A stretch of DNA of 64,000 bases from Candidatus Latescibacterota bacterium (GTDB taxonomy: Bacteria; Latescibacterota; UBA2968; GCA-2709665), in contig OZ241917.1 of the NCBI GenBank assembly GCA_965203805.1, positions 2,560,001 through 2,624,000 of the forward strand, written 5' to 3'. Both the position numbers and the translations under genes were made by a program. Position 1 is the stretch's first letter. Each line of letters begins with the position of its first letter. This document shows positions 16,301-48,033 of the stretch, in pieces. Below the pieces are notes generated by a model. The model saw nothing but the letters and a program-made list of their open reading frames with translations, was not told the origin of the DNA and ran no database searches.

Positions 16301-16792
16301 GGCCAATGCTCGAAGTGGGGCACGCGCGGACGATGAGCCCAAAGTGCGATGGATCCGTCGCAACAGATTTTCAAGAGGAGGATCGGCATGCGAGCGATAA
16401 TTCTGTTGATTTGCACAATTCAGGTTTTCTGTAGTACAATCAAAGCGCAGCATCCCGACCCGCATAGGTTTCAACAAAGAGGCTTCATCAATTGGAATTG
16501 GCGAAAAATGCTGGTTTTCGCAGACATACTACAATCATAAGCCGTATTTTTCCGTGGAGTCATTAGAGGGTATACAAGGTCAGGAGGTCCGCGTTGTCAC
16601 CTTTGATAATCCGAAATGCATGCGCGACGATCTTTCAGGTTTTGACACCGATGTTTCACAAATGCTGAATCATCGAATGATGAGTCCACTCCGAAAAGTC
16701 GAGTTTACTTATTGGCAAAAAAGTACTAAATTCGAGGTATCGACAGGCTTCAGAGTCGCTGCCGTAGAATCGAAAAAAATGGCGAGGGCGAT

Positions 16793-18409
16793 ATGTTTAG
16801 AAGGAGTGCCCCTTCAAGTGCGCCGGATCTGTTTCGCAGTTTTGAGTCTCATCTCACAGGTCGGAAGCGGAACCGGCTCAATGATCCGTTGTGCTGGCAT
16901 AATCTGTTTTACGAGCACATCACGTCAAAGGTGGATGAGGATAACTTCCGTGTGGTGTATGCCGCTGACGTAGGGCGTCCTAATGCGCCGATTCGTCAGT
17001 TGGTGTCGATGATGATCATCAAGGAGGGTTTTGGGTGGAGCGATGCCCACCTTTTCGATCAATGTCGGTTCAACATCCTGGTGATGGGTGCATTGGGATT
17101 GGCGAATCTTACGGATGAAGTGCCTGTCGAGTCCACGTATTATCTGTTCAAGCAGGCGTTGTATTTGTATCAACTGGAGACCGGTCGCGACCTGATCGGC
17201 GAGACCTTTGCCAGCTTAACGAAGACGCAGGCCAAGGCCTTTGGTGTGTTGGGTCAGCAGATTCGAATGGACAGCCTGCCTGCGCCGGATACTCGGCAGG
17301 CAGGTAAGTTGATCGGCTCGAACATTGCGCTTTGTTGTCGGTTGCAGTTGGTGGTGGGTTGCGTACAAGGGTTCTGGAGGTCGTTGGACCAGGCCCAAAA
17401 ACAACGATCATCGGCAGCGGATCAGCAGGTTTTGGAGGCTCTGATCCAGGGGAAGCCTCATCAGGTTGTCTACGGTCTCACCAGTCGTGAAAAAGGCGAG
17501 AAGCTCCAGGAATTGGGGCTGTTATTGAGCAGGCTACAAGCGACCTATACCGAGAAGGACAGCGACCAATACGATCTGATCGTGCGTGTTTTTGGGGACC
17601 ACTATACGGTTTCATCTTCCCCCGAGGAGGTGCTGCCCAAGCCGCATGAAGCGATCTGTTCATCCTCGTTGCAGTCTGCCCATGATGAAGAGGCGGCCTT
17701 TCGCAAGAAAGGGAAGGACAAGGTGAAAGGGTATACGGTCAACCTCACCGAGACCTGTGATGAGGAGGGCCTCAATTTGATCACGGACGTTGACGTCAAA
17801 CCCGCGACGCGTCCCGACAATGCGTTTGTCCAAGGCGCCATACAGAGGACGCAACAGGTGGTGGGCGACGTCGTCGAAGTGTCAATGGATGGGGCCTATA
17901 ATGATCAATCCAACGCCGAGTATGCCGACGAAAACGACAAGCAATTCTTTTACAGTGGCCTGCAAGGAAAGCCAGGGCGTTTCCGTTATGAACGCACAGC
18001 AAAAGGCGTCACCGTCACCGATCAACAAACCGGAGAACTTCACATCGCCCAGGAATACAAACCGGGAAAATACAAAATCATCATCGATGGCAAAGCACGA
18101 TACTTTCAGGAACATCACATCGACACTTACCTCAGACGCAAACAGATGGAAGCCCTGCCTGACCCCATCAGAAAACGACCTGCCTGCGCCGAGTTCGCTG
18201 CCTCGCCTGCTTCAGCAGGCAGGTGCTCGGCAGGCAGGCGCAATAACGTCGAAGCCAGCATCTTCCAGTTGAGCTACTACACCAAAAATGGCAAGACGCG
18301 CTATCGCGGATACAGGCCACACCAACTGTGGGCGCGCTGTCGTGGCCTATGGGTCAACCTCGTTCGGATCCAAAACTACCTCACAACACCCTCGACGCTC
18401 CCCGCATAA
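16793..18409 (+). CDS. DDE transposase carrying two in-frame palindromic inserts
   Basis: GRPNAP, WSDAHLF, IRMDS, SMDGAY, RNNVE motifs. Confidence 0.88.
   Translation: MFRRSAPSSAPDLFRSFESHLTGRKRNRLNDPLCWHNLFYEHITSKVDEDNFRVVYAADVGRPNAPIRQLVSMMIIKEGFGWSDAHLFDQCRFNILVMGALGLANLTDEVPVESTYYLFKQALYLYQLETGRDLIGETFASLTKTQAKAFGVLGQQIRMDSLPAPDTRQAGKLIGSNIALCCRLQLVVGCVQGFWRSLDQAQKQRSSAADQQVLEALIQGKPHQVVYGLTSREKGEKLQELGLLLSRLQATYTEKDSDQYDLIVRVFGDHYTVSSSPEEVLPKPHEAICSSSLQSAHDEEAAFRKKGKDKVKGYTVNLTETCDEEGLNLITDVDVKPATRPDNAFVQGAIQRTQQVVGDVVEVSMDGAYNDQSNAEYADENDKQFFYSGLQGKPGRFRYERTAKGVTVTDQQTGELHIAQEYKPGKYKIIIDGKARYFQEHHIDTYLRRKQMEALPDPIRKRPACAEFAASPASAGRCSAGRRNNVEASIFQLSYYTKNGKTRYRGYRPHQLWARCRGLWVNLVRIQNYLTTPSTLPA
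17275..17304. repeat. 30-nt CCTGCCTG..CAGGCAGG palindromic element, in frame in the transposase
   Basis: Absent from the paralogue near 33050 (GACAG|TAAGTT). Confidence 0.92.
18179..18238. repeat. 60-nt nested palindromic element, in frame in the transposase
   Basis: 59/60 identical to 39399-39458. Confidence 0.92.
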
Positions 18410-18836
18410 GAGGGGCTTTCTTGTCCAAAACCCCCATACCACACACCCACAGCACCTTCACAGGTCGCCCCTGAGCCGGTACGCCCCACCTACACCGGAT
18501 CTCGTCGACACACACGAAATCACAAATTCCAACGCTGACCACTTACATCCGGCTCTCATTACCCCGTTTTCGGAGGGGACTCAATGATCAATTTGAGGAT
18601 ATCGAGTTGGTATTTGCAAACATACGTAAAAAGAGATGCAAAATTCGATGTCGACAACCTCCGTCCGAACGGAAAATACGAAGCCAGAGGCAAGTGCATT
18701 CAGTCAAAGACATACCCATCGAAAGGGATCGCGGTTGATTACGTTACTAACGGTCGAAGTATCACACATGTCTATCACACAATGGCACTGGCCGGGTGCG
18801 GAAGTGCCAAGTAGGGGAATCGTGCAAGTAACGTCA

Positions 18837-29202: not shown

Positions 29203-29790
29203 CCCCCCACCGCATCAGCCGTCGCCGGCTCCTTAGTAAACTTTTCGGCCCTTCGACATTTCGACACCCTTCGACAAGCTCAGGGACCGAGCTCAATGCA
29301 GGCAAGCTCAATGACCACGCGTTGTCAGGCAATCTCCGATTTCGCTCAGAATAACAGGCCGACCGACCGCCAAACCTGTCATCCTGAGGAAGCCGTCCAG
29401 CCTGCCGGCGGTTCATCGGCAGGCTGGCTGACGAAGGATCTACTGCAGCATCGCTTAAACCCGAGCGTGTTCTGTCATTCGCGGAGAGTTGGTAGGCGGC
29501 ACGTTTGCGCCTACACGGTCAGGCTGAGCCGGCGCCACGGAAACCATGCCTCCGCGCAAAGGTTTGTATTCAAAAGGCTTCCGCTACACGTCCCGTCGAG
29601 AAGACGGGAGATTCTTCGACTCCGCTCAGAATGACATGCGTCGTAATAACCAAAAGCGAGATGTTTCGGTCATGCCCTGGCCAAACTGTGACGAAGACGT
29701 TTCGAAGGTGGGGCCTGCCTGCCTGCCAAAGCGTGGCTGGCAGGCGCAGGCAGGCGCTCCGCTGCGCAGGCAGGCGACTCCCCCTCAAGG
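29203..29790. repeat. Cluster of palindromic repeats
   Basis: Triple-nested TTCGAC..AGCTCA (29250-29316); GTCATCCTGAG..GAAGGATCT and GAGATTCTTCG..CTCAGAATGAC pair; CCTGCC nest 29714-29774; CTCCCCCTCAAGGGGGAG. Confidence 0.8.
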
Positions 29791-32194: not shown

Positions 32195-32375
32195 GGGGCC
32201 GGCTCGGCTTCTGCCTGCCTGCCGCCTGCCTGCGCCGCTGCGCTTCCCGCGGCAGGCAGGCGCTCCGCTTGGCGCAGGCAGGCGACTCCCCTCAAGGGGG
32301 GAGTGATTGCGACGTGAATGCGCGACAGCCGGTGTCGAATGCGTCCACAGGGTGACGTGATTGCGAGAGGTCGCT
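32195..32375. repeat. Composite repeat containing a 69-nt nested CCTGCCTG element (32214-32282)
   Basis: Nearly identical to 33620-33795. Confidence 0.9.
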
Positions 32376-33619: not shown

Positions 33620-33795
33620 GGGGCCGGCTCGGCTTCTGCCTGCCTGCCGCCTGCCTGCGCCGCTGCGCTTCCCGCGGCAGGCAGGCGCTCCGCTTGGCGC
33701 AGGCAGGCGACTCCCCCTCAAGGGGGGAGTGATTGCGATGTGAATGCGCGACAGCCGGTGTCGAATGCCTCCAAAGGGTGGCGTGATCGCGAGGT
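33620..33795. repeat. Composite repeat containing a 69-nt nested CCTGCCTG element (33639-33707)
   Basis: Nest identical to 32214-32282. Confidence 0.9.
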
Positions 33796-39044: not shown

Positions 39045-39260
39045 ATGAAACTCCATTACTATCCCGAAACCGATAGCCTGTACGTCGAGTTCAAATCCGG
39101 TCCGGGCACTGAAACGCGAGAGGTCGCCAACGGGCTGAACGTCGATCTCGACGCCAACGGAGACGTCGTAGGCTTCGATATCGACGCGGCTTCCAGGCGT
39201 CTTGACCTTTCCACGCTTGAAACGGAGGCGTTGCCGGTACGCGCGTACAAGATGGGCTGA
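39045..39260 (+). CDS. DUF2283 domain protein
   Basis: YYPETDSLYVEF..DLDANGDVVGFDI. Confidence 0.88.
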   Translation: MKLHYYPETDSLYVEFKSGPGTETREVANGLNVDLDANGDVVGFDIDAASRRLDLSTLETEALPVRAYKMG

Positions 39261-39303
39261 CGGTTGTACGACCACCGCTGATTGCTTACCCATGGAGTCC
39301 TCT

Positions 39304-40776
39304 ATGAAATCTGTTATTGACCTCCGTCCGTACGTCCTCATCTTGACGGGCGTTTTCCTGTGTCTGTCCGCCCTGCCCTGTGATGCGAACCCTGCAGGCC
39401 TGCCTGCGCCGAGTTCTCTGCCTCGCCTGCTTCAGCAGGCAGGTGCTCGGCAGGCAGGCGGACCCCGGTTGACCCTCGAGGCGTGTCTGAGGCAGGCGCT
39501 GGCCAACAACCGGCAACTGGCGGCGGCCGGATTCGCCGCCGAAAAGGCAAACTGGGACCGCCGGAACGCGTGGTCGCAGTTCGCGCCGAGGGTGAGCTTC
39601 AATACGGAGGTGACGCGGATTGACGAACAGACGCTGGCCGAGCGGGACTTTTCCAGGTACTTTCCACCCGAGATCCCCGTACCGCAAGTGGCGTTCCGGA
39701 CCTCGTACTATTCGTCGTTCCAGGCGCACGTCCCCATCTTCGACGCGGAACTGATCAACGGCGTTGCCGTGGCGACCACCGGACAGTCCGCGGCCGAACG
39801 GACTCGAGAGGCCATCCGCGATCAAATCCTCTATCAGGTCACCTTCGGGTACCTGGAAGTGCTGAAACGCCGCGCGACGCTCGAACTTCAGCGGGAATTC
39901 CTCGTCCTGACCGGCCTGAACGTCAAAAAAGCCGAGAGGATGCACCTTGCGGGGAGATATTCGAAGCTGGACCTGCTGCGGTGGCAGGTGGAACACCAGC
40001 AGCAGAAGAGCAGCGTGGCCGCGGGAGAGTCCGCCTTGCGCGATGCAACGGTTCGCTTGCGCCGGCTGCTCAACCTTCGCGCGCTGGAGACGGACGCGCT
40101 GGCGGACGCCGTCCCGGACGTTCTCAACGCGGAGGCCACGCGGCTGGCGAATTTGTCTGAAGGTGACATCCGGCGGCTGGCGGGCGTGGAGAACCGGACG
40201 CTGGTTGAAGGGAACGCAGTACTCGCAGCGGCGGAACGGGACCGGGAACGCAGCCGCCTGGTCTACCGGGGGCAGGTTTCGAGTTACCTGCCCGACGTCT
40301 CTCTCAGCTATTCGACGGCCTGGCGCAGAAACGATACGCCGGCGCTGGACGACTACAGACCCTCTACGGTCATGGTCAATCTGTCGGTTCCCCTGTTTAC
40401 GGGATTCCGAAACCTCTCGCGTCTGAAGTCGGCGCAATTCAGCTATCTGGCGCAGGATTCGCACTTCTCCGATCTGGTGGACGAGACCCGGCAGTCGCTT
40501 GGCGAGACGGTCAACCGGATCGTCAATCTGAAGAACCAGCGCGAACTGATCTCGACCAGCCTTGCGTTCAATGAAAACAACTATCGGATCGTCTCCCGGG
40601 AAAAGACGCTGGGGCGGGCATCGAATCTGGACGTCATCGATGCGAAGCTGAACCTGCAGAACGCCCGGCTGCTGGAGATCACAACGCGATTCGACCTCGC
40701 CTCAACGGCGGTCGAATTTCACTACCTGATGGGCAGCCTCGACGGTCTGGTCGAGGAAATGGCGGAGTCGGAATGA
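39304..40776 (+). CDS. TolC-family outer membrane efflux protein with 20-aa palindrome-derived insert
   Basis: Signal peptide, LTLEACLRQALANN, YLPDVSL, LSVPLFTG; start may be 39292. Confidence 0.9.
   Translation: MKSVIDLRPYVLILTGVFLCLSALPCDANPAGLPAPSSLPRLLQQAGARQAGGPRLTLEACLRQALANNRQLAAAGFAAEKANWDRRNAWSQFAPRVSFNTEVTRIDEQTLAERDFSRYFPPEIPVPQVAFRTSYYSSFQAHVPIFDAELINGVAVATTGQSAAERTREAIRDQILYQVTFGYLEVLKRRATLELQREFLVLTGLNVKKAERMHLAGRYSKLDLLRWQVEHQQQKSSVAAGESALRDATVRLRRLLNLRALETDALADAVPDVLNAEATRLANLSEGDIRRLAGVENRTLVEGNAVLAAAERDRERSRLVYRGQVSSYLPDVSLSYSTAWRRNDTPALDDYRPSTVMVNLSVPLFTGFRNLSRLKSAQFSYLAQDSHFSDLVDETRQSLGETVNRIVNLKNQRELISTSLAFNENNYRIVSREKTLGRASNLDVIDAKLNLQNARLLEITTRFDLASTAVEFHYLMGSLDGLVEEMAESE
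39399..39458. repeat. 60-nt nested palindromic element, in frame in TolC
   Basis: 59/60 identical to 18179-18238. Confidence 0.92.
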
Positions 40777-47914: not shown

Positions 47915-48033
47915 TTTTCTCTTCGTCCTTTTTCTTGTACGCCCAAGAAAAAGGACCAAAAAGAACGGCGCCTGCCTGCCGAGCAGGCTTCGGCCTGTCT
48001 GCCGTTCCAACGGGACAGGCAGGCGCAGGCAGG
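47915..48033. repeat. Hairpin repeat plus 63-nt nested CCTGCCTG element (47971-48033)
   Basis: Outer 33 nt, inner 30 nt (47994-48023). Confidence 0.85.

Follow-up and report, generated by a model that had tools for sequence, protein, structure and literature searches.

The window analyzed here, a 64,000-nt stretch (positions 2,560,001-2,624,000) of a single-contig genome of 5.87 Mb and 59% GC (G000), contains a complete insertion sequence (IS) related to IS1182, whose transposase gene carries two short palindromic inserts, each close to a residue of the predicted catalytic triad. The second insert, a 60-nt composite hairpin to which an earlier note on this DNA had drawn attention, is the main subject of this report. 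Homologous records are metagenome-assembled genomes labelled Candidatus Latescibacterota, and the sequencing runs that contain the stretch are mostly sponge and coral metagenomes. The features at the locus are the following.

16681-18583, + strand: complete IS1182-like insertion sequence, called copy W (alignment of W with copy B, motif positions)
16793-18409, + strand: transposase open reading frame (ORF), 538 aa, still open (ORF list, DUF772 domain, invariant columns, AlphaFold model)
17270-17272, 17888-17890 and 18251-18253, + strand: codons of the predicted catalytic residues D160, D366 and E487 (invariant columns)
17275-17304, + strand: insert 1, a 30-nt hairpin encoding LPAPDTRQAG, residues 162-171 (gap in 7 of 8 paralogues)
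18179-18238, + strand: insert 2, a 60-nt composite hairpin encoding PACAEFAASPASAGRCSAGR, residues 463-482 (gap in all 8 other copies)
18179-18196, + strand: left arm of the outer 33-nt element of insert 2, CCTGCCTGCGCCGAGTTC (matches the intact 33-mer CCTGCCTGCGCCGAGTTCTGCTCGGCAGGCAGG)
18197-18223, + strand: inner 27-nt hairpin, in the loop of the outer element (core as in genomic ..CCTGCCTCGCCTGCTTCAGCAGGCAGG elements; folded structure)
18224-18238, + strand: right arm of the outer 33-nt element, TGCTCGGCAGGCAGG (intact family members, folded structure)

The host transposase

Copy W is bounded by terminal inverted repeats, TGAGTCC(A/C)CTCCGAAAA, that match at 17 of 18 positions, and is flanked by a 4-bp direct repeat, ATGA (16677-16680 and 18584-18587), which is the target duplication. 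The N-terminus of the transposase holds a DUF772 domain (Pfam PF05598, E 9.4e-9, 35.6 bits where the cut-off is 23.1). The NCBIfam IS1182 model NF033551 aligns over residues 46-526 with 79-82 bits, below its cut-off of 270, and the protein would thus be a distant relative of IS1182 and not a curated member. Aligning homologues, a check that the earlier note had proposed, bore out its claim that the inserts adjoin catalytic residues of a DDE transposase: an alignment of 72 homologues shows M159-D160-S161 and R-N-x-E487 to be invariant, with D366 conserved to at least 90%. An AlphaFold (AF2) model of the protein (mean predicted local distance difference test score, pLDDT, 79.9) places D160 in strand 156-162 (beta-1) and E487 in helix 485-494. 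When the model was compared with known structures by VIA-align, the best match was Tn5 transposase (Z 13.0-13.2, 252-272 residues aligned), and retroviral integrase cores matched at Z ~10 over residues ~150-535; we relied on VIA-align for the fold because the Foldseek scores were weak (E 2.9e-3, TM 0.19). The host gene is accordingly predicted, from conserved columns for the triad and from the model for the fold, to encode an IS1182-like DDE transposase with an RNase H-like, Tn5-type fold.

The genome contains eight other full-length copies of this IS. Copy B is 86.6% identical to W at the protein level (tblastn) and 93.9% identical in DNA over 508 shared codons. The proteins of the seven remaining copies show 100% identity among themselves and 69% identity to that of W (tblastn).

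Two hairpins interrupt the transposase gene

In the nucleotide alignment of W with the eight other full copies, insert 2 appears as one clean gap of exactly 60 nt, and none of the eight carries it, in agreement with the extent given in the earlier note. The empty site reads AACGA|CGCAAT, and no target duplication accompanies the insert. Insert 2 separates the two arginine codons of the invariant RRNNVE and ends five residues before E487, and its last codon, AGG, re-creates the first arginine. The translation changes from ...IRKR|RNNVE to ...IRKR-PACAEFAASPASAGRCSAGR-RNNVE, the alteration that had been read from the single sequence. The frame of W stays open only by virtue of the insert's length, 60 being divisible by three, and of the absence of stop codons from the hairpin. 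In the AF2 model, residues 463-483 have a pLDDT below 50 and form a loop between helix 457-460 and the catalytic helix 485-494.

Insert 2 folds into one coaxial hairpin (-21.9 kcal/mol, z = -3.6). The earlier note had parsed it as a 30-nt element inside another of 30 nt. The division into an outer and an inner element stands, but the lengths do not: because the outer sequence, CCTGCCTGCGCCGAGTTC|TGCTCGGCAGGCAGG, is found intact elsewhere in the genome as a 33-nt element (CCTGCCTGCGCCGAGTTCTGCTCGGCAGGCAGG, at least four times), the parse becomes 33 + 27 nt. The first base of the inner element has diverged from the C that is usual in the family.

Insert 1 begins two residues past the invariant D160, directly after strand beta-1, at an empty site (ATGGACAG|TAAG) that again shows no target duplication. 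It folds at -10.5 kcal/mol (z -3.2), and residues 163-176 have a pLDDT below 50 in the model, as a loop beside strand 156-162. Seven of the other copies are empty here, and copy B carries a different, 33-nt element at the exact nucleotide of insert 1. The insert of W belongs to a 30-nt subfamily that is also found at genome position 689671 and, reversed, in the pseudogene L012, and that of B belongs to a 33-nt subfamily.

The inserts probably arrived recently as DNA

The site of insert 2 is empty in all eight aligned homologous loci from related genomes and in three of three metagenome loci. Protein P0025, the sister of W and 96.5% identical to it, has neither insert. Both are also absent from DNA contigs of runs X4 and X5 that are ~97-99% identical to W (9 differences in 751 nt for record 17, and 22 in 836 nt for record 11); 30 nt are missing at 17274, and the sequence skips from 18178 to 18239. 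These contigs part from the window sequence after 18584, beyond the end of copy W. Run X3 carries insert 2. The distribution of empty and filled sites in such close relatives suggests that both inserts of W are recent DNA insertions. The ratio of nonsynonymous to synonymous substitution rates (dN/dS) is 0.42 for the pair W-B, compared with 0.27-0.40 for the other 18 pairs compared. Since W and B had already separated when the inserts arrived, this ratio is uninformative on function after insertion.

The earlier note had also raised the idea of an intron-like element that is removed at the RNA level. Four RNA runs were found (5-6% of words each), and contigs of one of these, X18, were used for the comparison. 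The only X18 contig that crosses the site does skip the 60 nt. However, it is ~90% identical to W, differing at 57 of 617 positions, and DNA runs contain the same joined form at 97-99% identity to W. We therefore read this contig as another copy and not as a spliced transcript of W. An Rfam search at E up to 1 gave no family match except chance miRNA-like hairpins. These comparisons lend no support to RNA-level removal of insert 2, and the X18 contig says nothing on splicing of W.

A family of small, nested hairpins

The inserts belong to a repeat family. Within the window, GCAGGCAGG or its complement occurs 23 times, compared with 0.5 expected. The whole genome has 186 clusters that start and finish with CCTGCCTG...CAGGCAGG; their flank pairs are of 113 distinct kinds, and the conserved ends of the family are CCTGCCTGC...GCAGGCAGG. 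Simple units range from 19 to 37 nt and are mostly 33 nt (55), 31 nt (46), 27 nt (12) or 19 nt (12) long. Nesting is common among the clusters, as in a 33-mer that holds a 30-mer to give 63 nt. By a crude gene caller of our own (4,079 genes, 81% coding), intergenic DNA holds 146 of the 186 clusters, ORFs enclose another 37, and 3 straddle the end of an ORF. Of the 37 intragenic clusters, 20 belong to transposase ORFs, and most of the others are no more than ~200 nt away from a predicted gene end. Occurrence of the family is lineage-specific: its strict pattern was found in 17 of 40 related genomes, with 0-94 copies per genome, and a reversed-pattern control gave no match across the same 40.

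At none of the nine sites for which the empty site is established was a target duplication found. The sole flank signal is at position -1, where 69% of 226 flanks have a G, and beyond this weak G^C preference no shared target motif is visible among the nine empty sites. We considered whether lengths that preserve the reading frame might be an adaptation and rejected the idea: 99 of 186 clusters are multiples of three, but the share is equal among intergenic (76/146) and coding (21/37) clusters, a single 33-nt class contributes most of the figure, and in one case a 19-mer disrupts the frame. Stop-free clusters number 63 of 85, compared with 22 in shuffles, a difference confounded by the shared ends.

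Other members of the family in the window include a second copy of the composite that forms insert 2.

39399-39458, + strand: second copy of the 60-nt composite, one mismatch (blastn, 98.4% over 62 nt)
29714-29774, no strand given: hairpin-family cluster, 61 nt (family pattern in the window)
32214-32282, repeated at 33639-33707, no strand given: nested hairpin cluster, 69 nt (family pattern, blastn)
47971-48033, no strand given: nested cluster, 63 nt, a 33-mer holding a 30-mer (family pattern in the window)

The second composite sits in frame in a gene for a TolC-like outer-membrane efflux protein (predicted ORF 39202-40776; Pfam OEP), just past the signal peptide, and gives this cellular gene 20 repeat-derived residues. 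The G012 orthologue, which is 96% identical, lacks it, as do the orthologues in G003 and G002. Because this copy lies in an efflux-protein gene 21 kb away from copy W, the composite appears to move as a unit that is set by its outer ends. Its translation begins PACAEF... in W and, in another reading frame, GLPAPSS... in the OEP gene, so that no peptide is conserved.

Several further arrangements were seen. A direct repeat of ~170 nt at 32195-32367 and 33620-33793 (spacing 1425 nt), each copy with a 69-nt nested cluster, brackets a partial copy (aa 1-306) of the W transposase family. In a third IS family (DDE_Tnp_1_4), two loci that are 99.3% identical, L019 (G000:C1:433387-434787) and L034 (4184679-4186025), differ by an in-frame 33-nt hairpin present in one copy only, and the copy at G000:C1:1368668-1369876 has lost the 119 nt that separate two hairpins, as if these two family members had recombined. 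Hairpins of 31 nt with a T5/A5 loop (CCTGCCTGGCGGTGGTTTTTCGGCAGGCAGG) occur by the dozens in ~230 kb (G000:C1:3245000-3471000), within a larger repeat with constant flanks, and may be a different, terminator-like branch of the family. The commonest 14-mers of the genome belong to a CRISPR-like array (G000:C1:2399065-2403850), with 65 copies of a ~37-nt repeat at a spacing of 72-77 nt.

Insert positions in the transposase family

To place the two inserts of W among others of their kind, we surveyed 110 aligned proteins, comprising W, B and C together with 107 homologues from databases, each 480 aa or longer. Nine of the 110 contain hairpin-type peptides. In insert-free numbering these mark nine sites, after residues 86, 106, 161, 196, 254, 312, 440, 451 and 495, and a tenth site, after residue 293, is seen at the DNA level in the pseudogene L012. 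The insert at site 86 was confirmed at the DNA level in L008; in the other homologues it is the peptide pattern alone that points to a hairpin origin. Some homologues keep an open frame with four inserts, and a metagenome scan for the DNA of the multi-insert homologues returned only insert-free relatives.

Two of the ten sites, which spread over residues 86-495, lie within six residues of a member of the D, D, E triad (binomial probability of two or more such sites, 0.18). The earlier note had taken two of two inserts next to catalytic motifs as a sign of selection for silencing the IS, while allowing that two events could be chance; the wider sample does not bear out selection and makes chance the better reading. 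The sites differ widely in local conservation, with percentiles between the 3rd and the 99th. The inserts are neither confined to variable loops, the outcome that the earlier note had named as contrary to its proposal, nor concentrated at the active site.

Sites 86, 161 and 312 are each occupied in at least three non-sister branches of the tree, and certain landing sites seem to be used by hairpins more than once. Such a pattern could come from repeated insertion at preferred sites, from precise excision, or from recombination of one IS copy with another. Across 22 genomes of the family we found 34 full-length copies of the W-type IS. Inserts are present only in W, B and one copy in G015, each of which is single-copy, and the multi-copy sets (7, 7, 11, 3 and 2) are all insert-free. 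The single-copy state of the insert-bearing copies fits inactivation, and it also fits old, idle copies that have accumulated hits.

An IS5-like element with hairpins in five identical copies

One element outside this family bears on what the hairpins do to an IS.

G000:C1:1308656-1309965, with further copies at 1512710, 2630962, 3680001 and 5651643: IS5-like element L064, 1310 bp (sequence identity 100%)

The five copies of L064 show 0 differences, have separate flanks, and have target duplications of their own, four of them clear 4-bp duplications. Compared with homologues in G002 and G013, the element carries three hairpins: a 27-mer in frame, a 19-mer that shifts the frame by +1, and a 36-mer. 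The 36-mer lies between RARV and EHPFG, directly 5´ of the codon that aligns with the catalytic glutamate, a residue that we take to be the glutamate of the R-x3-E motif of IS5. A copy in G007 shares the 36-mer at 36 of 36 positions, with the elements only 86% identical over aligned codons.

Read without the inserts, the L064 frame has no stop in 317 codons. Directly 3´ of the 19-mer lies GGG CUU UGC, with a CUU_U slippery site after a Shine-Dalgarno-like AGGCAGGG, where relatives have UUC; this arrangement presumably resembles the prfB +1 frameshift site. A tblastn search of the genome returned no other homologue of the L064 transposase and no intact helper. It is possible that L064 multiplied with the aid of a helper copy since lost, through precise-excision revertants, or by expression through the hairpins.

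A probable recent mobile hairpin in a dispensable gene

We consider it likely that insert 2 is a recent, nested mobile hairpin in a dispensable IS gene, and that its nearness to a catalytic residue reflects chance and the reuse of sites rather than silencing or splicing. A small non-coding mobile repeat, here with two nested members (27 nt in the loop of 33 nt), would insert without target duplication. The composite would have landed in a complete IS1182-like IS, between the arginine codons of RRNNVE, and the result would be 20 extra residues that form a loop just ahead of the catalytic helix. Selection presumably purges hairpins from ordinary genes, and they would survive between genes, near the ends of genes and in transposase genes that are dispensable; we infer that hairpins are seen in transposase genes because dispensable genes let them persist. 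The positions near D160 and E487 would be due to chance plus a tendency toward reused landing sites, and the hairpins probably do have preferred landing sites. The W transposase with its inserts may be either dead or still active.

A number of results weigh against this interpretation. Insert positions lean toward conserved stretches (mean percentile ~0.65), and when they are pooled with those of the IS5-like element, 3 of 14 sites lie beside a catalytic residue (p = 0.087), so that a weak bias is possible. The five identical copies of L064, inserts included, clash with a simple picture in which an insert kills the IS. The split between intergenic and coding clusters depends on our crude gene caller. 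In addition, a search for a parent IS with CCTGCCTGC ends examined twelve long-range end pairs, none of them convincing, and there is no orientation bias by replichore (odds ratio 1.0), such as is expected for lagging-strand single-strand transposition.

A candidate mover was found in a 201-aa protein that passes the NCBIfam model NF047646 for REP-associated tyrosine transposases (RAYTs; REP, repetitive extragenic palindromic) with 104 bits, compared with a cut-off of 80.

G000:C1:4533512-4534117 (L017:1201-1806): RAYT-like gene (NF047646)

A 33-mer identical to the outer element of insert 2 begins 7 nt past the stop of this gene in G000. Within the genus, hairpin counts are 10-85 in five genomes with a RAYT orthologue and 0-28 in ten without (Mann-Whitney p = 0.004, for related genomes that are not independent). 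Adjacency was seen at only one of six RAYT loci, however: at the five orthologous loci in relatives no family hairpin was found within 1.5 kb of the RAYT gene. Moreover, the gene is flanked by hairpins of a different kind, GTAG-tagged GGGCAGGGATGCCC hairpins in ~170-nt repeats, of which 16 of the 18 genome copies cluster there. These two observations also count against our interpretation, and we treat the RAYT as no more than a candidate mover. A CCTGCCTG hairpin has inserted into one of the GTAG-tagged hairpins near the RAYT gene. At L059 (G000:C1:4547682-4548257) there is a second Y1_Tnp-like domain, which shares 47% identity with the RAYT, inside an open frame of ~1250 aa, and long frames like it (1203-1441 aa) also occur in G008, G011 and G016.

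An explanation that overlaps with ours, and to which we give slightly less than an even chance, is that target-site preference alone accounts for the positions, with the hairpins recognizing certain DNA sequences or structures, some of which chance to fall at the D and E motifs of IS4-, IS5- and IS1182-type transposase genes. Conservation of the nucleotides at these motifs would then bring hairpins close to catalytic codons as a side effect. Such a preference would bring members of two subfamilies, the 30-nt insert of W and the 33-nt insert of B, to the identical nucleotide after the D160 codon, where P0025 and the X4 and X5 contigs are empty. It would equally suit the recurrence of sites 86, 161 and 312 in non-sister branches, the 36-mer shared by L064 and the G007 copy just 5´ of the catalytic glutamate codon, and the frequent G at position -1. 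The nine empty sites, however, have no motif in common except for the weak G^C, the same scatter would result if IS copies recombined or hairpins were precisely excised, and gene conversion among family members could maintain the identity of the inserts.

Selected silencing, in which the host favors cells whose IS has a catalytic center disrupted by a hairpin, so that inserts at D and E become enriched, seems to us improbable. The 3 of 14 sites in two IS families within six residues of a catalytic residue would be in line with it, as would the W-B dN/dS and the contrast between single-copy insert-bearing and multi-copy insert-free IS1182-like copies. However, the other 11 of the 14 sites lie away from catalytic residues, one of them in a variable stretch (3rd percentile), and a frameshift or deletion would be equally effective, with nothing to single out hairpins. 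Both inserts of W are modelled as loops outside secondary-structure elements. L064 has an insert right before its catalytic glutamate and yet exists in five identical copies, and seven intact, identical copies of the same IS family as W persist in the genome.

Least probable of all, if only by a little, is expression-level bypass, in which hairpins are cut from the mRNA or are skipped or frameshifted by the ribosome and interrupted transposases are still made: the multiplication of L064 without another homologue in the genome, its stop-free insert-free frame, its slippery site and the open frames of homologues with four inserts all point that way, but the 60-nt-skipping RNA contig is a relative whose joined form exists in DNA, no ribozyme or other Rfam match was found, 3n lengths and GC-rich sequence are trivially enough to give open frames, intact ORFs are over-represented among database proteins, a helper copy of L064 may have been lost or precise DNA excision may give revertants, and insert-bearing IS1182-like copies have not multiplied. 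We attach the same slim likelihood to the corollary that the hairpins are not dead ends and that, through mRNA removal or a +1 shift or bypass, the inserts at D160 and E487 act as conditional attenuators and not as lesions.

Comparison with known elements

If a recent, mobile hairpin is the right description of insert 2, this locus offers a clean case of a tiny palindromic repeat caught moving, with empty and filled sites in near-identical copies, nesting, a composite that moves as a unit, and deletion between copies. There is also a use for annotation, since stretches of 9-20 residues of the types PAC...AGR and LPA...QAG would otherwise be misread as real protein in transposases and in a TolC-like protein. 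Should the reuse of sites follow a defined target rule, or should L064 be expressed though interrupted, the mutual regulation of hairpins and IS elements would become a testable question.

The tiny size and the nesting recall the cyanobacterial repeats of Elhai et al. 2008, which are reportedly a few tens of nucleotides long, hairpin-forming, often nested, and both intergenic and coding. On that description they have the same anatomy as the present family; the phylum and the sequences differ.

The miniature inverted-repeat transposable elements known as MITEs are non-autonomous and dispersed, have inverted-repeat ends and are at times intragenic (PMC10969869, in the part available), and the present family is like them in all these respects. 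MITEs are, however, 70-300 bp long, with target-site duplications and a parent IS that has the same ends (PMC3733652, likewise in part), whereas the family described here has units of 19-37 nt, no duplication at nine sites, and no parent element that we could find.

Rickettsia palindromic elements (RPEs) lie in frame in protein-coding genes and leave the ORF open (excerpts of PMC10969869 and PMC3733652), as the hairpins do here in transposases and in the TolC-like gene. RPEs are ~150 bp long with a conserved peptide. In contrast, the units here are 19-37 nt, the 60-mer is read in two frames, a 19-nt member frameshifts its host, and most copies are intergenic.

The idea of an insertion made harmless after transcription or translation is familiar from IStrons, group I and II introns, inteins, and the SOS splicing of inverted-repeat transposons from animal mRNAs, which is triggered by pairing of the inverted repeats (PMC12779559, in the sections available). 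Unlike IStrons, introns and inteins, the 60-nt insert has no ribozyme or intein-like content and no Rfam match. Among the papers listed by literature searches on Latescibacteria or Latescibacterota and sponges, none is about such repeats, and PMC12993501, a genome paper on sponge Latescibacterota that was searched by term, mentions only CRISPR.

There is also a likeness to REP/REPIN-RAYT systems. Shared features are GC-rich imperfect palindromes of 20-40 nt, in tens to hundreds of copies, that are mostly extragenic, lineage-specific and without target duplication; this genome also encodes a RAYT-like protein, and hairpin counts are higher within the genus where an orthologue is present. REPs inside genes have been reported, and two REP superfamilies are defined by a GTAG or CGTC tag (both in the available part of PMC3733652). 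The present family differs in having neither GTAG nor CGTC at either end, its ends being CCTGCCTGC and GCAGGCAGG, in that the RAYT here is flanked by the other, GTAG-tagged type, with a family hairpin at one of six RAYT loci, and in its frequent nesting of element in element, which is not classical for REP. We take the element to represent a new, REP-like family within a kind of small mobile hairpin repeat that is already known.

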